A stretch of DNA of 64,000 bases from Candidatus Aenigmatarchaeota archaeon (lineage in GTDB: Archaea; Aenigmatarchaeota; Aenigmatarchaeia; CG10238-14; SCSR01), in NCBI GenBank assembly GCA_039090665.1, contig JAWCSL010000001.1, positions 1-64,000 of the forward strand. Reading direction: 5' to 3'. The translations under genes were made by a program, and so were the position numbers. Positions 35,745 to 47,628 of the stretch are shown here, one piece after another. The notes beneath the pieces are model-generated. The model saw only the letters and a program-made list of their open reading frames with translations, was not told the origin of the DNA and searched no databases. Positions within the stretch are counted from its first letter, which is position 1; each line of letters opens with the position of its first letter.

Positions 35745-35851
35745 GCTGGCGTGGATTAGCCTGGCTAAATCGCGGCGCTCATAGCATCTATGAGCTTTGA
35801 TAAAGGATGAAAGAAACGCCGAGATCGCGGGTTCAAATCCCGCCGCCAGCA
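35745..35851 (+). tRNA. tRNA-Met(CAT), probably elongator, with 32-nt intron at 37/38 (35784-35815)
   Basis: acceptor GCTGGCG/CGCCAGC; anticodon arm CGGCG-CTCATA^A-CGCCG; GGTTCAAATCC T-arm. Confidence 0.9.
35784..35815 (+). ncRNA. tRNA-Met intron carrying a box D'/C' guide for C34
   Basis: CTATGAGC pairs with GCTCATAG (35777-84); TTGA and ATGAAAG boxes; N+5 = C34. Confidence 0.75.
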
Positions 35852-38703: not shown

Positions 38704-39603
38704 TACTGAGTTATATTATTTATTTGCTCATGGGTCTTGGCGTTGGGCTTTTGATCAAGTCAAACAAGACATGAGATGAAATAGCCTATTCTGACTCATG
38801 AGATATTGGCCTGAAGTGAAAGAGCTTCAGGTAGGTTGATTGGTGAAACCTAGAGGTAGGGCCCGCCAATTCTGGTTGATCCCGCCAGAGGCCACTGCTA
38901 TCCGGCTTCGACTAAGCCATGCGAGTCGAGAGGGGAAAGCCCTCGGCGCACTGCTCCGTAATACACAGTCAACCTACCCTTAGCTGGGGGATAATCCCGG
39001 GAAACTGGGGCTAATACCCCATAGGTGCTAGGTACTGGAAGGTCCTAGCGCCGAAAGCTCCGGCGGCTAAGGATGGGACTGTGGCCTATCAGCTTGTTGT
39101 GGAGGTAAAGGCTCCACAAGGCGATAACGGGTACGGGCTATGGAAGTAGGAGCCCGGAGATGGACTCTGAGACATGAGTCCAGGTACTACGGTACGCAGC
39201 AGGCGCGAAAACTTCTCAATGCTCGCAAGAGCGAAGAGGGAAGCCGGAGTGCCCTTGCTCTGCAAGGGCTTTTGCGGTCTGAAAACGGGACCGCGAATAA
39301 GGGGTGGGTAAGACGGGTGCCAGCCGCCGCGGTAATACCCGCGCCCCGAGTGGTGGCCACGATTATTGGGCCTAAAGCGTCCGTAGCCGGTCTGGTAAGT
39401 CCTCAGTGAAATCCTCTAGCAAACTAGAGGGCTTGCTGGGGATACTGCCAGACTTGAGACTGGGAGGGGGCAGGGGTACTCCCAGGGTAGGGGTGAAATC
39501 CTGTAATCCTGGGGGGACCACCTGTGGCGAAGGCGCCTGCCTGGAACAGGTCTGACGGTGAGGGACGAAAGCTAGGGGAGCGATCGGGATTAGATACCCC
39601 GGT

Positions 39604-39682
39604 ACACGAGGTTGGGTATCTTCTGATTTAAAGATGAAGAAAAATCCCAACTCAAGCTAGGATTTCCTAACTCGTGCGGGAA
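39604..39682 (+). ncRNA. 16S BHB intron 1 (after Ec U801) with K-loop and antisense elements
   Basis: CCCG/CGGG helix, GTA and AAA bulges; removal restores GATACCCCGGTAGTCC. Confidence 0.9.
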
Positions 39683-40082
39683 AGTCCTAGCCGTAAACGA
39701 TGCCCGCTTGGTGTTGCAAGCTTCTCGGGAGCTTGCAGTGCCGAAGCGTAGGTGTTAAGCGGGCCGCCTGGGGAGTACGCCCGCAAGGGTGAAACTTAAG
39801 GGAATTGGCGGGGGAGCACACAAGGGGTGGGCGTTGCGGTTCAATTGGATTCAACGCCGGAAATCTTACCAGGGCCGACGGCAGGATGAAGGTCAGTCTG
39901 AAGGGCTTACCAGACGAGCCGAGAGGTGGTGCATGGCCATCGTCAGCTCGTACCGTGAGGCGTGCGCTTAAGTGCGTTAACGAGCGAGACCCACACCCCA
40001 TGTTGCTAACTGCTTCTCCGGAAGCAGTGCACTCATGGGGGACCGCTGGCGATAAGCCAGAGGAAGGAGTGGGCGACGGTAG

Positions 40083-40170
40083 ACAGGTAAAAGGCTCAAG
40101 ACCGATTCATGTGAAAAAAAGATGAGCATGAATATCGCCCAGAGCCGTACATGTCTTTTACCTGACCGAA
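40083..40170 (+). ncRNA. 16S BHB intron 2 (after Ec 1197), H/ACA-like hairpin
   Basis: CGGT/ACCG helix, AGA and AAG bulges; removal restores GACGGTAGGTCCGTATG. Confidence 0.9.
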
Positions 40171-40451
40171 GTCCGTATGCCCCGAATGCCCTGGGCCACA
40201 CGCGACGCACAATGCGCGCCACAATGGGATGCGACCCCGAAAGGGGAAGCAAAGCCCCTAAAAGCGCGCTCAGTTCGGATCGAGGGCTGTAACTCGTCCT
40301 CGTGAAGCTGGAATCCCTAGTAAGCGAACGTCATCATCGTTCGCTGAATACGTCCCTGCTCCTTGCACACACTGCCCGTCAAGCCAATCGAGCGGAACTC
40401 CATCGAGGCTTGCGATGAGCAAGTCGAGTTGGAGTTCTGTGAGAGGGGCTA

Positions 40452-40557
40452 ATCTTGGGGGTCCAGAAAAAAATAATATGAAAGAATTGGCTTGACTCTG
40501 ATGTGATGATGAGATGGAGGTGAGTTGATTGCTTGTATGGACCTCCCAAGAGCCTAA
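40452..40557 (+). ncRNA. 16S intron 3 (between Ec A1492/A1493) containing a full box C/D sRNA
   Basis: GGGC/GCCT helix, TAA and AAA bulges; removal restores GGGGCTAAGTCG; C, D', C' and D boxes present. Confidence 0.9.
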
Positions 40558-40832
40558 AGTCGCCACAAGGTAGCCGTACGGGAACGTGCGGCTGGATCAC
40601 CTCCTTACGTGCAACCCTACCTCAGGCACCATAAACAACCCTACCTGAAAGAATTTTCCTTTTTATCAGTACCAAAGTAAAAAAAATTAAGCTCGAATCT
40701 TTACCATTATCCTCAAATTTTTCAATTCTTTTCTTAAACTGTTTTCAAAAAGCTTGTGTTAACTAAAAACTAAAATAAATGAGAGAAAAATAGCTACCGA
40801 GCTTATAAAATAATAAAAATTGGGAAACCATT

Positions 40833-42851
40833 TCAAGCAAGAATAGCATATCTAGCGATCAAAGAAGCAAAGACAGAAGCTGTTAAAGACATGACTGTTA
40901 TCATTGTGTTCAAACTTGGTCCTGCTGTGTCCTTGAAAGGATCACCAACAGTATCACCAACAACAGCAGCCTTATGAGCTTCTGAACCTTTTCCACCAAA
41001 AGCCCCTTCTTCTATCAGCTTCTTAGCATTGTCCCAAGCTCCACCAGAATTTGCCATGAAAAGAGCAAAAATTATTCCTGTGATTATACTTCCTGCTAAA
41101 AAGCCCGCTAAAGCCTCTTTTCCCAAAATGAAGCCAACAAGCAAAGGTGCAGCTATAGCAAGCAAACAAGGAAGCATAAGCTCTCTTAAAGCACCTTTAG
41201 TTGCTATGTCCACGCATTTGGCATAATCAGGTTTAGCTTTTCCTTTCATCAATCCAGGAATTTCTTTAAATTGCCTTCTCACTTCTTCTATCATACGAAA
41301 AGCATTTCTCCCTACTGCCAAAATCAATAAAGCCGAAATCACAGGAGGCATCATGCTACCAATAAAAGTCCCAACTATAACCTTAGGCTCCATCAAGTTT
41401 ATTGAAAACAAACCAGTAGTCAAATCTTTCCTTATTTCAACAACTTCAGCGTAAGCCCCAAGCAAAGCCAAAACTGTTAAAGCTGCAGCACCAATCGCGA
41501 AACCTTTTGTTATTGCTTTTGTTGTATTTCCCAAAGCATCAAGTCTGTCTGTAATTTCCAAGACTTTGCCTTTCAAACCAGCTTGTTCCGCTATTCCTTT
41601 TGCATTATCGACAATTGGACCATAAGCATCAGAAGAAATTATCATTCCAACTATTGCTAACATACCCACTGCTGCTATAGCCACACCATAAAGATTACTT
41701 ACACCGAAAGCCCCTGCAAGATGCCAAGCTGCAAGCATTGCTACACAAATTCCGATGATTGAAGGTACAATGCTCAAGATTCCATAAGAAAAGCCTGAGA
41801 GGATGTTGATAGCAGCTCCTGTTTTTGCAGCTTCTGCTGTTTTTTTCACAGGAGCTTTATCGATTGATGTATAGTAGTTTGTTGTTATTCCTATAATCAT
41901 GCCAGATATAAGTCCAGCTAAAGTTGGTAAGAGAACACCAAAAGTTTGGTTTCCAAGTTCAAGAGCTTGAATCACAAAAAATGTTAAAATTGCAAAAATA
42001 AAACAAGTGGAAAAGGTTCCAACATTCAACGCAAGATTAGGGTTCTTTTTCTTGGCCAAATTGACGAAAATTAAACCAAGAAGAGAGGAAAAAATCCCAG
42101 CAGCTGCTATCAACAAAGGCAAGAAGATAAAGCTTGGAGCAATTGCTTTCCCAATTATCATGGCAGCTATGATGCTTGCTATGTAAGAATCTATCAAGTC
42201 AGCACCCATTCCTGCAACATCACCCACATTATCACCCACATTATCAGCAATAACAGCAGGATTTCTTGGGTCATCTTCAGGAATTTCCATTTCCACTTTT
42301 CCCACCAAATCAGCTCCAATATCTGCTGTTTTAGTGTAAATGCCACCACCAGCTTTTGCAAACAAAGCCAAAGCACTTGCACCAAAGCTGAAACCCAAAA
42401 CAATCTCAGGATCTTGGTAAATTTGGTATAAAATGCTTATGCCAAGCAAAGCTATGCCAACTATCATTAAACCCATGATGGCCCCACCATAAAAACCAAC
42501 AGAAAAAGCTTTTGCTAATCCTTTTCTTGCTGCATTTGTAACCCTAACATTTGTTTTAACTGCTGCCAGCATTCCAAAGTAGCTTGCTATAGCAGTGGAA
42601 AAAGAGCCAAGCAAGTAGGCTAGAGCTATGTCTGGGCTTAAGAAGAGAAAAATAAGAGTTGTCATGATGACAACGAAAATTGCCAAATAAAGATTTTGCC
42701 TCTTCAAGTAAGCTTTTGCTCCCACTTTTATCGCTTCAGAAATTTCTTCCATTTTTTTGGTTCCCGGGCTTTGTTTGCTCACATGGAAATACAAGTAACA
42801 AGCTGTGAAGATCGAAGCTAAGCCTGCGATTGTTGGGATTGAAGCAAACAT
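40833..42851 (-). CDS. hppA: membrane-integral pyrophosphatase (GNTTKA, K+-independent type)
   Basis: [39 protein letters not shown]. Confidence 0.96.
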
Positions 42852-42908
42852 GAAATCACGATATATAAAAATTTTGTTCGATGATAACTTAAATTTTAAA
42901 CCATAAGA

Positions 42909-43320
42909 TTAAGTTAAGTAGTGCCTACATATTTCTAAAACTTTCCTACATTTTTCACACAAAAAATTCTCTATCCTTAAGTTAGAAGGATTGATTGACC
43001 AAAGATATTCGACCAACTCTTCGACCTTACTATAAGGATACATTAAACACTTGTATTTGTAATCTGGCTCATAATGATGAGTCAATCCGAATTTATTTTC
43101 AGCTATTTCATGTAAAAACCCGCAACTCAAAAATCTCTTCTTGATTTCTAAATATTGATTTGAAATAAAGAAAGTAGATAAATAAATTGACAAATAACTT
43201 TCTTTATCGATTTCTAATATGTTAGAAGCTGCCCAGCTCTTAAGGCCTCTCTCAAGAAAGTGATACGGAACTTCAGATCCTTCTGTGTAAAAGAATGGGC
43301 CGTAAAGTAATAATTTTCAT
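42909..43320 (-). pseudogene. hypothetical gene with apparent +1 frameshift just after the ATG
   Basis: ATGAAAATTATTA: removing one A opens a frame (MKLLLYGPFFY...) continuous with ORF 42909-43193. Confidence 0.5.
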
Positions 43321-43347
43321 TCCACACTATTAAGTTATTCTTTTTAT

Positions 43348-43696
43348 TTATGAAAGGTAAAACCAAGTCGAAAATCTCATTAAATTACAGGAGTGTTGAT
43401 CTTCATAAGTTTCTTTTGCCAATTTCAGTATTTTTTCTTTTGAATCTAATCCATATTTTCTAAGGATTTTCCAATTTTCTTCAGTTAGATTTCCAATTGA
43501 ACTTTCTGTAAGCTGAAGAAAAATTTTCTTTCCTTCTTCAGTTTCTTTGCAATTATCGGAAATTCTAATTTCCAATTGGAAAATTATTTTCAAGAAGAGT
43601 TTTCTTCAAAATATCTTCTAGTTCTCCATTTCTTTTTTCCACTAATATATCAAACCTTCTCATATTTTATCTGTAATATTTCTTCTGTCAAATCAT
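43348..43696 (-). pseudogene. hypothetical gene interrupted by single-base insertions
   Basis: frames join as ...YEKV-DILVEKRNGELEDILKK...FPI-EIRISDNCK... after removing single duplicated bases. Confidence 0.45.
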
Positions 43697-43786
43697 TTTT
43701 TTCAAAAAATCTATTTAGAGTAAGAAATTTTAAAAAATATAAAGAATTTAGTTTAAGTTCACAATTATTTAATACCAGCTCAAAAC

Positions 43787-43858
43787 GGGCCGGTAGATCA
43801 ATGGTAGATCGCCTCGCTTGCAACGAGGAGGCTCCGGGTTCAAATCCCGGCCGGTCCA
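43787..43858 (+). tRNA. tRNA-Ala(TGC)
   Basis: GGGCCGG/CCGGTCC acceptor with G3:U70; CCTCG-CTTGCAA-CGAGG. Confidence 0.96.
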
Positions 43859-43885
43859 TCAATGAAATTTTATTAAATTTAAATT

Positions 43886-43900
43886 CGAAATCTTTATAAA
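43886..43900 (+). promoter_or_regulatory. BRE/TATA promoter of the 23S unit
   Basis: CGAAA-TC-TTTATAAA ~25 nt before a GCCGGTG...CATCGGC hairpin. Confidence 0.6.
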
Positions 43901-43973
43901 TACAAAATACAACTTATTTATTTGCCGGTGTCAGTATGTCTGCTTAATTCGAGCATCGGCTTTCTTTATTTTA

Positions 43974-44033
43974 GCGATGAGCTTTGTCTTTCTCTGCTGA
44001 CAAAAAAGATGAAGATGTGGACACCTTGTGAGC
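43974..44033 (+). ncRNA. candidate box C/D sRNA in the 23S leader (A)
   Basis: C ATGAGCT 43977, D' CTGA 43997, C' ATGAAGA 44009, D GTGA 44028; 12-13 nt spacers. Confidence 0.65.
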
Positions 44034-44080
44034 AAGCTGCATGCAACTCCTTATTGAAAGAATAAGGGGTGAAGAGTGGA

Positions 44081-44141
44081 GGTTGATGATAACATTTATT
44101 CGCCTGAAAAAAGATGAAGAGCGAACTGTCTATTTGAAACC
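44081..44141 (+). ncRNA. box C/D sRNA in the 23S leader (B)
   Basis: GGTT/AACC terminal stem; C ATGATAA, D' CTGA, C' ATGAAGA, D TTGA; guides match 16S 39293-301 and 23S 47193-202. Confidence 0.82.
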
Positions 44142-46181
44142 ATAAGATGACACTACCACAGGATCAAGGAGGTCACTAAGGCCTAACAAGCTGACCCCAC
44201 TTGGTGGATAGCTTGGCTTCGGAGCCGAAGAAGTACGTGGCAAGCTGCGATAAGCCTGGGGTAGCCGCATGCAGGCGTAGATCCCAGGATCTATGAATGC
44301 GAATCGCTGGCTTCGGCCAACTCCGAAAGGAGGGGGAACGCGCTGAATTGAAGCATCTTAGTAGGCGCAGGAAAAGAAATCAAATTGAGATGCCGTTAGT
44401 AGGGGCGACCGAAAGCGGCAGAGGGCAAACCGAACTGGTTGGCGAAGAGCCAAACAGGATGTGGAGTTGTAGGACCTGTGTCCTTCCTATCCTAGCCGAC
44501 CTGAAGTCTGCTGGAAAGCAGCGCCAAAGAGGGTGATAGCCCCGTAAGGGAAGGCTAGGAGGAAGATGGCAGGTATCCTGAGTACCATTTCCTGGATGGG
44601 AAGTGGGAAGCTGGGTGAATTAACATCCAACCCTAAATACTCCCGAAGTCCGATAGCGAACTAGTATGGTGACAGAAAGCTGAAAAGCACCGCGAAAGCG
44701 GGGTGAAAAGAGCTTGAAACCAAGTGGGGATAGTCAGACACGGCCCGGAAGGTGCTCCTTCGAATGAAATCCGAAAGGAGAGTAAGAGAAGGAGCTTACA
44801 GGGTCGTGTCGTCCGTGCGGAAACACGGGGCAGGGAGTTTGTCTCAGTGGTGAGGTTAACTTGCTTTCACAAGGTAGCCGGAGCGAAAGCGATTAGCCCG
44901 CAACTGTTCTTTATGGACAGTGAGGGGCAGGGTATGAAAGTGCCTGAAATCACTGGGACAAGACCCGAAGCCAGGCGATCTAACCCTGGGTAAGGCGAAG
45001 TCCCTCGAAAGGGGGATGGAAGCCTGCTACCGGTGCTGAGTTACAAATCGCTCGGGTGACCTGGGGTTAGTGGTGAAAAGCCTAACGAGCCTGGCGATAG
45101 CTGGTTCCTCCCCAAATGCACGTCAGTGCAGCCTGGTCGGAGGTAGGCAATGGGGTAGAGCTACTGATTGGAAGGTCAAGGACCGAAAGGTTCAGCCTTC
45201 CTGTCAAACTCCGAATCCATTGCCACCTGAGAAGACCGGAGTGAGGGTGCTGGGGTAAGCTCGGCACTCGAAAGGGGAACAACCCAGCCTAGGGTTAAGG
45301 TCCCTAAATGCTAGCTAAACGCTGAAGGGTGTCTGAACCCTCAGACAGTAGGGCTGTAGGCTTAGAAGCAGCCATCAGATAATAAGTGCGTAACAGCTTA
45401 CCTACCGAGGGTTCGGGCCCCGAAAATGGAAGGGACTAAGCTAGCTACCGATACCCTAGACCGCGAAAGCGGGGGTAGGGAGGCGTCCTGCATGGGCAGA
45501 AGCCTCTGCGTGAGCAGGGGTGGACCGTGCAGGATTGAAGATCCTGCCGAAAGTAACAGCAAAGTTAGGTGAGAATCCTAACCACCTGAAGCCTAAGGGT
45601 TTGCCAGCAATGTTGGTCAGCTGGCAGTTAGCCGGTCCTAAGGGTGCTCTTAACCGAAGCACTCGAAAGGGAAAGCCGTTAATATTCGGCTGCCATGGGG
45701 ATACGTGCGGCGACGCAAGCCAGTTTTCCGACGCTTCGGGATAGGCAGACGCAAGCTAACTGCCGAAGTGAGCGGAGTCTCTTAATGAGGAGAAGCTCAT
45801 GAAGGCAGGAATGGCTCCTCGTATGAGGAGTTCTGCTGATTCCTGGAGCCCGTGAAAAGGAAAACTGGAAGGATTCCCCATGACCGTACCGAGAACCGAC
45901 ACAGGTAGGCTTGCCGAGAAGGCAAAGGTGTGTTGGGAGAACCCAGCCTAGGGAAATCGGCAAGTTGGCCCCGTATCTTCGGTAGAAGGGGTGCCTGTTC
46001 TCTCGCAAGGGAGAGCAGGTCGCAGTGACAAGGGGGAAGCGACTGTTTAACAAAAACGCTGGAGACCGCAAGTCCGAAAGGATGTGTACGGTCTCTGATG
46101 CCTGCCCAGTGCCGGTGTGTGAAAGCCCGGTTCAACGGGAAGAAGCCCCGGCAAACGGCGGCGGTAACTCTGACCGTCGTA

Positions 46182-46231
46182 ACTCAAGGCGGTCATTTGA
46201 TTTAATGATATTCCGCTGCCTTGGGCGGCAT
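46182..46231 (+). ncRNA. 23S intron (after Ec A1927) with D'/C' guide for H69
   Basis: GTCG/CGGC helix, TAA and ATA bulges; GGCGGTCA antisense to 46171-78. Confidence 0.85.
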
Positions 46232-46360
46232 AAGTAGCGTAATCCCTTGCCGTTTAAATGACGGCCCGTCTGAACGGCTTAACGACTTCCCCACTGTCCT
46301 GGGCTGGGACCCAGTGAACTCGCCTTTCCGGTGAATAGGCCGGAGACCTCCTGTGGGAAA

Positions 46361-46391
<31 letters not shown>

Positions 46392-46545
46392 GTGTTGTGG
46401 TAAGGTTGTGACTGCATAGAGTAGGTAGGACTCGCTATTAGGCTGAGGCTTCGGCCGAAAGCTGAGAGGAAAGTGTAACACTACCCTTTCGCAACCTTAC
46501 CGCTAACTCGAAAGAGGACAGCACCAGATGGGCAGTTCGGCTGGG

Positions 46546-46631
46546 AGTCTAGAAGTCTAAATGAGGAGTCCCTTAAGTTATGATTTTTTATGATTAAGGG
46601 CATACGAACCGAAAGGCTTCTAGACCAGCAA
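46546..46631 (+). ncRNA. 23S P-loop intron (Ec G2252/G2253) containing a full box C/D sRNA targeting 16S
   Basis: GCTG/CAGC helix, GGA and AAG bulges; removal restores GGCTGGGGCGG. Confidence 0.93.
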
Positions 46632-46686
46632 GCGGTACGCCCTCGGTAAAGGATCGAGGGCGCCCAAAGGTCAGCTCATCCGGGTC

Positions 46687-46775
46687 ATGGTAGAGTCTAG
46701 TAAATGATTGGACCGTTCCAGAATGATCTTAATGATTTCTGAGGTAGCTGATGAGAATAGGCTCTACCACCCGCA
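46687..46775 (+). ncRNA. 23S H84 intron (after Ec ~C2306) containing a box C/D sRNA
   Basis: CGGG/CCCG helix, TCA and CAA bulges; removal restores CCGGGTCAGAAATCCGG. Confidence 0.9.
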
Positions 46776-46919
46776 AGAAATCCGGAGTAGAGTGTAAGCG
46801 CAAAAGCTGGCCTGACTGGATTCCGCAAAGCGAGGAATCCAGCCGCGAAAGCGTGGGCTAGCGATACTTCGGTTCCTCTTAATGGGGGCCGGAGGTATCA
46901 GAAAAGCTACCTCGGGGAT

Positions 46920-46973
46920 AAACTAGCTAGGGCTGATTAAATTATTTTTCTTCATATCTAGCTAGTTCCCTAA
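46920..46973 (+). other. 23S hairpin intron after Ec U2449
   Basis: GGGG/CCCT helix, ATA and AAA bulges, 10-bp AACTAGCTAG stem; removal restores GGGGATAA. Confidence 0.88.
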
Positions 46974-47001
46974 AATGGGCCCGTGGCCGGCGAAAGCCCA
47001 C

Positions 47002-47072
47002 TGCTCGAAGGGGTTTTTCGTCCCAAAGATAGCGAGCCTCGGGTTCTGAACTCGAGCCCTTCGCGCGGGTAA
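47002..47072 (+). ncRNA. 23S H89 intron (after Ec ~2477) with antisense elements to the PTC
   Basis: GCCC/GGGT helix, ACT and AAA bulges; removal restores GCCCACATTGACCC. Confidence 0.88.
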
Positions 47073-47628
47073 ATTGACCCGGCGCGTTGGTGCGTCGATG
47101 TTGGCTCCCCCTCTCCTGGCCGTGCAGCAGCGGCCAAGGGTACAGGTGCCCACTGGTTAAAAGGGGACGCTAGCTGAGTTCAGAACGTCGTGAGACAGTT
47201 CGGTCGCTATCTACAGGAGGTGCTGGTCGTCTGACCGGAAGGAAGGGTTAGTACGAAAGGAACACCCTTCCGTGGCCTCTGGTCTACCGGTTGTCCATTT
47301 GGCATCGCCGGGCAGCCAAGCCATACGTGGATAAGAGCTGAATGCATCTAAGCTCGAAACCACCCGGAAAAATAGACGACCACTCTTGCTACTGGTGCGC
47401 AAGCATCGGTGGCAAGACGAAGGCCCCTGTAGACTACAGGTTTGATAGGGGAGAGGTGTAAGCCTCAAGCTTTCGAGCGAGAGGCGAGCCTGCTCCTACT
47501 AAAAGCCTGAGTTGTTAGGCCTTGATAAGCTCCTTGATCCTGTGGTAGTGTGAAAAAATTCTGATTCTCCCAAAAATATATACTAGAGTAGAGAAAACTT
47601 ATTTAATTGTCACTACATAGTAGTTATT

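Follow-up and report, generated by a model that had tools for sequence, protein, structure and literature searches.

The window, by which we mean the whole stretch of 64,000 nucleotides that was analysed, belongs to a 0.62 Mb assembly that is 90.6% complete, and it carries an archaeal 16S rRNA gene (38869-40605) and an archaeal 23S rRNA gene (44179-47522). The 3.5-kb spacer between them (40606-44178) contains a tRNA-Ala gene and, on the opposite strand, a pyrophosphatase gene (40833-42851), and therefore the 16S and 23S genes are probably transcribed apart. There are five short introns in the 23S gene. Four of these are located at 46546-46631, 46687-46775, 46920-46973 and 47002-47072, and each is skipped by hundreds of RNA reads from run X18. 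The fifth is a 50-nucleotide intron located after A1927 (E. coli numbering), just downstream of helix 69 (H69), and it contains a candidate guide for 2'-O-methylation of this helix. The features at this locus are as follows.

44179..47522, + strand: host gene, an archaeal 23S rRNA with five short introns (Rfam RF02540; five joints in RNA reads)
46157..46164, + strand: 23S positions 1903-1910 (the H69 5' strand and the three bases before it), alternative partner of the 3' arm
46171..46178, + strand: target, 23S positions 1917-1924 (end of the H69 loop and 3' strand), in which C46174 is C1920, the predicted 2'-O-methylation site
46176..46182, + strand: 5' half of the BHB splice motif, comprising the exon strand GTCG (1922-1925) of a 4-bp helix and the bulge TAA
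46182..46231, + strand: 50-nt BHB intron after A1927 (from BHB geometry, intron-less kin and RNA reads)
46183..46187, + strand: 5' strand of the terminal stem in the intron fold, pairing with 46221-46225, at the place of a canonical box C
46188..46195, + strand: antisense guide, 8 bp to 23S 1917-1924, with G46192 at N+5
46197..46200, + strand: D' box TTGA, separated from the guide by one unpaired base (46196)
46205..46211, + strand: C' box ATGATAT, which together with the D' box and the loop 46201-04 gives a predicted kink-loop
46213..46220, + strand: 3' arm, partner of the guide (within the intron) or of exon 1903-1910, with no D box after it
46221..46225, + strand: 3' strand of the terminal stem in the intron fold
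46226..46232, + strand: 3' half of the BHB, comprising CGGC and the bulge ATA, with a predicted cut after 46231

The splice motif has a 3-4-3 architecture, wherein a helix formed by 46176-79 and 46226-29 is flanked by bulges at 46180-82 and 46230-32, and this geometry predicts that the 5' cut is made after 46181. In intron-less relatives the sequence runs through the junction equivalent to 46181/46232 without interruption. The BHB helix is fully paired (4/4 pairs) in 62 of 66 introns examined, and exon position 1925 covaries with its intron partner as G:C in 28 cases, T:G in 26 and T:A in 13 (n = 67). The exon-side stem of the motif is weak, with a C-A mismatch followed by two pairs. Position 46233 of the window is the A at 23S position 1929 that is found, along with mostly G at 1925, in the order-level lineage. 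Elsewhere in the phylum, 1929 is G and 1925 is T; the lineage combination weakens the BHB exon stem. Genes for EndA and RtcB are present in the genome. A group I or homing-endonuclease intron was considered and rejected, since 50 nucleotides leave no room for a catalytic core or an ORF, and at E values up to 10 Rfam gives matches to rRNA alone. We take position 1927 to be a known intron site in Thermoproteota, for which the literature search gave no confirmation.

Reads from RNA run X18, of which about 5% was read, include 2192 that join 46181 to 46232, and depth inside the intron is about 50-fold, on the same strand and with several intron variants represented. Almost no reads from the window are found in runs X16 and X17. 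The joined form is also present in two probable-DNA runs, and the intron-less junction occurs in 96 of 370 genomes of the phylum, so the joined reads are not attributable to intron-bearing strains. Thus, the RNA reads show transcribed intron-bearing precursors and the correct junction, not splicing in this strain. With the BHB motif, the intron-less relatives and the joint at 46181-46232 all in agreement, the 50-nucleotide intron proposed by the initial annotation is real.

Within this intron, GGCGGTCA (46188-95) pairs with TGACCGTC (46171-78) by seven Watson-Crick pairs and one G:U pair. Downstream of the guide there is a single T, followed by TTGA (46197-200), the loop TTTA and ATGATAT (46205-11). 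The fifth base 5' of the D' box, G46192, pairs with C46174, which corresponds to E. coli C1920 in the Rfam alignment and in the E. coli row of the alignment given in the accessible supplement 2 of PMC4644070. The initial annotation was therefore exact in its coordinates for the pairing, for both boxes and for the N+5 base. When the intron is shuffled with its dinucleotides preserved, such a guide motif appears once in 20,000 shuffles. An alternative use of the ATGA at 46205 as a D box, based on a 9-bp match to 44380, was set aside as chance, for its loop varies freely in orthologues.

There are two respects in which the element resembles a canonical bipartite C/D sRNA. An internal C'/D' kink-loop is present, with boxes that covary and a fold that is predicted, and the pair at N+5 (G46192 with C46174) is Watson-Crick. 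In contrast, the terminal C/D motif and a second guide are absent, and neither a box C before the guide nor a box D after the 3' arm is found in the window or in the 51 listed guide introns described below. The guide itself forms 8 bp here and 6-11 bp (mean 8.1) across those 51 introns, whereas a canonical guide has 10-12 nucleotides that form 9-10 bp. Judged from its sequence, the element at 46182-46231 is guide-like but falls outside the canonical bipartite box C/D family on these two features.

To place the motif among its relatives, introns at position 1927 were collected by a pattern that asks for just the two exon ends, which was applied to 370 genomes of the phylum and gave inserts in 39 (35 in rRNA, by our reading); inserts longer than 58 nucleotides were searched within 60 relatives. 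The set was enlarged by 37 genome matches and 80 of 113 metagenome matches to 90 distinct rows, and after removal of five bacterial assembly repeats and one non-rRNA row, 67 introns with the lineage H69 and 17 from other archaea were left. Among the matches listed, a guide, a D' box and a C' box with N+5 on C1920 occur together in 51 of the 67, compared with 0.15 expected from shuffles of the same introns, although the 51 are related, so that these and the covariation figures below overstate independence. Six loci were missed by the extraction pattern, and one of them (L072) is a real box-less intron, which would change the count to 51/68. The 51 natural guide introns among the matches listed measure 43-78 nucleotides. 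By our count, the motif is found in 27 of the 370 genomes searched, representing five families. Among the matches listed, it does not occur in any of the 17 hairpin introns that other archaea carry at 1927.

The GA of the D' box and the G at N+5 are present in 51 of 51 by virtue of the selection rule. The N+5 base is always Watson-Crick-paired in these introns, and two further boxed introns (L097 and L210) are mismatched there. The 5' bases of the guide are variable, with pairing mostly kept through Watson-Crick or G:U pairs. Covariation across orthologous introns, a check that the initial annotation had proposed, is evident in the kink-loop: the first base of D' forms a Watson-Crick pair with position 6 of C' in 37 of the 51 related introns, compared with 15.3 in column shuffles, and does so as T-A, C-G, A-T and G-C combinations. 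There are also two introns in which a U-U pair is changed on both sides to C-G. A full K-turn, with a stem of at least two pairs and a 3-nucleotide bulge, is possible in 16 of the 51 orthologues. An examination of covariation with the U1921 variant of H69 was empty, its pattern matches in G032 and G010 (L045 and L048) being without an upstream box C. The motif is missing in 16 of the 67 introns among the matches listed. Four of these 16 appear decayed (L097, L104, L185 and L210), with an N+5 mismatch or a lost D' box. The sequences compared are kin, but intact guide introns span five families. Additional inserts are present at L024, L027, L073 and L080, at positions around 1912 and 1935 (within H69 or shortly beyond it), and some accompany a 1927 intron.

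The initial annotation cautioned that H69 is itself a hairpin, so that part of the complementarity might reflect self-structure of the intron. Taken to its limit, this reading has the intron arise as a hairpin from a local H69 copy, with boxes that are chance or relic. Any copy of the H69 hairpin would pair with H69, which accounts for most of the 3' arm, and box-less hairpin introns do exist at the same site. However, the invariant GGTCA core of the guide is unlike the H69 5' strand and pairs with 1917-1921. In particular, the invariant TCA at its 3' end pairs with U1917-G1918-A1919 on the 3' side of the H69 loop, where the H69 5' strand has TAA, and the same TCA ends the guide of free-standing C/D sRNAs that have no such hairpin. 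For these reasons self-structure fails to explain the guide. The covariation of the boxes, the shuffle null and the presence of the element outside any H69 context speak against it as well, and with this reading largely refuted by conservation we consider it highly improbable. The caution was well placed for the second antisense element, which is mainly a stem partner.

That second element (46213-20) does pair with 46157-64 as originally described, but the degenerate D box assigned to it is not one: the TTGGG that follows is the 3' strand of the intron stem, and no D box is present. In 23 of 24 introns of the lineage exon type, the 3' arm forms 6-10 bp that begin at position 1903, against exons that are invariant at 1903-1910 in this set. 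In the other exon type (22 introns), the extension is either missing or variable. We also rejected the 3' arm as a box-D guide, as no D box follows it and in distant orthologues it is simply the complement of the guide. From the sequences, the 3' arm is best read as a stem partner with a possible helper role.

A more ambitious role for this arm would add to guiding at C1920 rather than compete with it. The intron could be a natural double guide of the BMG1 type, in which the stem stands in for box D and the 3' arm directs methylation near G1907. According to the accessible text of PMC9670817, a plain stem replaced the terminal C/D motif in the engineered BMG1 RNA and its spacer guided methylation. 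The pairing from 1903 in the lineage introns is in keeping with such a role, and five bases from the stem lies G1907, which the accessible part of PMC4644070 gives as a predicted site in three archaea (alignment position G2173). Against this, both spacers are 9 nucleotides here and 12 in BMG RNAs, six of the eight 3'-arm pairs are explained by pairing with the guide, and the 22 introns with the other exon type do not consistently keep the extension. We regard this additional activity as doubtful.

The same guide is also found in other housings. There are free canonical C/D sRNAs that carry it in G016, G041, G042, G047, G153 and G155, and it forms part of a cluster upstream of the 23S gene in seven genomes. 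It is located in two other 23S introns, one in G054 and G114 and another in G014, where box C is degenerate. C1920 guides were observed inside tRNA introns as well, at L139 (G037) and, by eye, at L298 (G329) and L302 (G262). Outside the 1927 intron, the guide stands behind a box C at canonical spacing and forms 8-12 bp, and its extension mostly follows base 1925 of the host. The intronic guides, with a mean of 8.1 bp, are shorter than most copies elsewhere, as tethering would permit. The many guide-pattern matches in coding-like sequence were left out of this count. As far as sequence comparison goes, this portability is the strongest argument for a guide over hairpin symmetry.

In 14 of the 14 genomes that have the guide elsewhere and in which H69 was found (22 searched), the 1927 intron is missing. 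This either-or pattern fits replacement but is not significant, because 0/14 is to be set against a base rate of about 20% and six of the 14 belong to two families in which guide introns do not occur. No such guide is seen in most of the 96 intron-less genomes, and therefore the Cm1920 mark would be dispensable in many of the kin.

Other introns of the window also hold guide-like sequences. The 16S intron at 39600-39690 seems to be of the one-motif kind too: a guide of 8 bp is followed by CTGA at 39623, a loop, ATGAAGA and a self-complementary arm. At N+5 it would target T39595, a short way upstream in the exon, which we take to be about E. coli U793. A second 16S intron (40450-40560) has an 11-bp guide whose N+5 base is A40381 in the decoding region, and the 23S intron at 46546-46631 has a 10-bp guide to 16S at 39797. 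No guide is seen in the 54-nucleotide 23S intron at 46920-46973, and the insert at the same site in G014 is the one that carries the C1920 guide. The tRNA gene at 35745-35851 has an intron of about 30 nucleotides with the box-like words TTGA and ATGAAAG.

The target base is a familiar one. In the accessible portion of PMC4644070, C1920 is a predicted sRNA target in four of seven archaea, and PMC5389701, again as far as it is accessible, assigns C1920 to N. equitans sR20 and reports Cm1920 as confirmed, with data not shown. The initial annotation called this the TlyA site. It is correct that Cm1920 is the predicted product of TlyA, but the site does not belong to TlyA alone, given the sRNA-guided prediction in four archaea and the report of its confirmation in N. 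equitans. The genome search for tlyA proposed at that stage gave no TlyA (TIGR00478) match over the cut-off in 60 genomes, with 7 of 14 controls positive. There is likewise no FtsJ-family match over the cut-off in the genome of the window, where a weak match is a 220-amino-acid ORF with a SAM-binding-like motif. A second guide for C1920 was sought in the same genome with a strict pattern that matched the intron alone. A relaxed guide core gave 18 further matches in this genome, none of which has a box C at guide distance when inspected by eye. With boxes and N+5 register conserved and TlyA missing from the 60 genomes, the original proposal of a C/D-type guide for Cm1920 appears sound. We consider it very probable that the intron guides Cm1920, whatever the timing.

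Genes for fibrillarin and Nop5 are present in the genome. L7Ae was not found in this 90.6% complete assembly, and it was found in 59 of 59 relatives. A match to PF01248 was rejected as L7Ae, because the ORF is L30e-sized, L30e-like and located beside RNA-polymerase and NusA-like genes. All seven genomes of the genus have a weakly matching neighbour about 1.5 kb away from L7Ae, and this too is missing from the present assembly (G000), which points to an assembly gap as the likely reason for the missing L7Ae.

A kink-loop could also bind L7Ae for another purpose, with the two arms acting to chaperone or delay H69 folding, or to tune splicing, and no methyl group being placed. Mammalian intron K-loop RNAs are reported to regulate their own splicing without guiding (bioRxiv 10.64898/2026.08.03.742641), and the orthologues L097 and L210 keep both boxes with a mismatched N+5. 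On the other hand, the one-base spacer and the N+5 register, which falls on an established methylation site, are fixed in the 51 introns and are identical in the canonical sRNAs of relatives, and a chaperone would have no need of such a register. This argues for guiding, and we judge a purely non-methylating role to be improbable.

There are three folds that compete for positions 1917-1925, namely H69, the BHB and the guide duplex. For the window sequence at 60 C, the guide hairpin, taken together with pairing of the 3' arm to 1903-1910, is calculated at -16.7, H69 at -14.7 and the BHB at -11.7 kcal/mol, in a model without K-turns or proteins in which the gaps are small (median 1.35 kcal/mol relative to H69). 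The cis fold has a pair probability of 0.7 at 65 C. The cis duplex is more stable than the BHB in 38 of 46 introns and than H69 in 35 of 46, and it has no advantage over the BHB in 8 of 46. In the predicted cis fold, the kink-loop is positioned at the junction adjoining the helix formed by guide and target, which is the placement that the enzyme requires. The fold of the free intron sequesters the guide within the intron stem (-17.9 kcal/mol for this intron, compared with -14.0 for the target duplex). Since the guide target overlaps the splice helix, methylation and splicing are expected to be mutually exclusive.

These features suggest an order of events. In the sequence itself there are the intron, its boxes and a predicted N+5 register on C1920. 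The kink-loop would be bound by L7Ae, which would bring in Nop5-fibrillarin, with the plain stem and the BHB replacing the terminal C/D motif. According to the folding prediction, the guide would fold back on 1917-1924 through a 9-nucleotide loop, the 3' arm would pair with the released strand at 1903-1910, and H69 would thereby open. Refolding would have to precede the cut by EndA, because the BHB uses 1920-1925 too, and ligation by RtcB and the formation of H69 would follow. We therefore favour, as the likely overall reading, a half-size box C/D guide that directs methylation of C1920 by fibrillarin, probably on its own precursor before splicing. Because the cis fold is the most stable and the guide of the free intron is hidden, action in cis before refolding and splicing is favoured, and we lean slightly towards the view that the guide acts mainly in this way.

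The same guide might instead act in trans, if splicing comes first and the excised intron, as a linear or circular RNA, then methylates C1920 on spliced 23S rRNA. The accessible text of PMC7994747 describes a precedent in the tRNA-Trp intron guide, which was first thought to act in cis and was later shown to act in trans. The guide and the 3' arm could swap strands with both strands of H69 at low energy cost, and copies of the guide in other housings must act in trans. The burial of the guide in the free intron and its short 8-bp duplex weigh in the other direction, as does the fact that no back-spliced (circular intron) joint is listed in the reads, although circles of 50 nucleotides are poorly sampled by such libraries. 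A mainly trans mode seems to us rather unlikely.

Methylation in cis by a half-size guide would have several relatives among known systems, here compared as far as the accessible parts of the cited papers allow. Archaeal C/D sRNAs for C1920 (N. equitans sR20, S. acidocaldarius sR20, M. maripaludis sR104, M. kandleri sR47 and I. hospitalis sR201) share the target base, the N+5 rule and the H69 strand (PMC4644070, PMC5389701). These sRNAs are bipartite: each has two C/D motifs, and the guides measure about 12 nucleotides, whereas here there are one motif, 8 bp and an intron 10 bases from its target. The euryarchaeal tRNA-Trp intron guide sR50 is likewise a BHB intron that guides its own host RNA, and it raises the same question of cis or trans action (PMC7994747). 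Unlike sR50, which has a tRNA host and two target sites, the present element has a 23S host, a half-size guide and a target that overlaps the splice helix. The guide hosts named in the accessible text of that paper are tRNA introns and not rRNA introns, and the accessible text of PMC6125680 leaves the 1927 site unmentioned. Bacterial TlyA has the same predicted product, Cm1920, but is a stand-alone protein. The 17 box-less BHB mini-introns in the rRNA of other archaea share the site and the BHB ends and are without boxes or an antisense element.

The closest designs are engineered. The MMG5 RNA combines one K-loop with a 5' guide, as does the intron, and with L7Ae it supports efficient and specific methylation of substrates with 8-11 bp; BMG1 has a plain stem in place of the terminal C/D motif (PMC9670817). 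In the accessible text of that paper, a stem can replace the terminal motif, and natural archaeal cases are called an open question. The delta-CD halfmers of PMC7229835 are also engineered half-guides. Such constructs have 12-nucleotide spacers and a free guide, whereas the natural intron RNA has 9-nucleotide spacers and a guide hidden in its own stem. Results with half-guides vary among the accessible portions of the reports: a C'/D' half-guide was inactive, at 0% (PMC3001065), half complexes were non-specific (PMC1635284), and half-guides were active but left an 8-bp substrate unmodified, with C'/D'-only RNAs thought unlikely to assemble in cells (PMC7229835). The literature search found no paper on archaeal rRNA-intron guides or natural one-motif archaeal guides, with subscription journals mostly outside its reach.

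The modified base C1920 is itself ordinary, and its modification and chemistry are already known. What appears to be new is the form: one kink-loop with no terminal C/D motif, located beside its target and coupled to splicing. More tentatively, these introns may constitute a natural family of single-kink-loop guides in which the splice motif serves for the terminal C/D motif, C1920 is methylated in cis and the intron leaves only afterwards. If this is true, they would be self-installing and self-removing modification cassettes that couple H69 methylation to 23S splicing. For two decades, in vitro work has given conflicting views on whether one C/D motif suffices for guided methylation in archaea. 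The 51 introns are natural candidates for this question, and their decayed variants provide built-in controls. Within one phylum, one guide seems to move among a free gene, a 23S leader, tRNA introns and three rRNA introns. Such mobility may help archaeal introns to acquire a function and so be retained, in parallel with the intron-encoded snoRNAs of eukaryotes.
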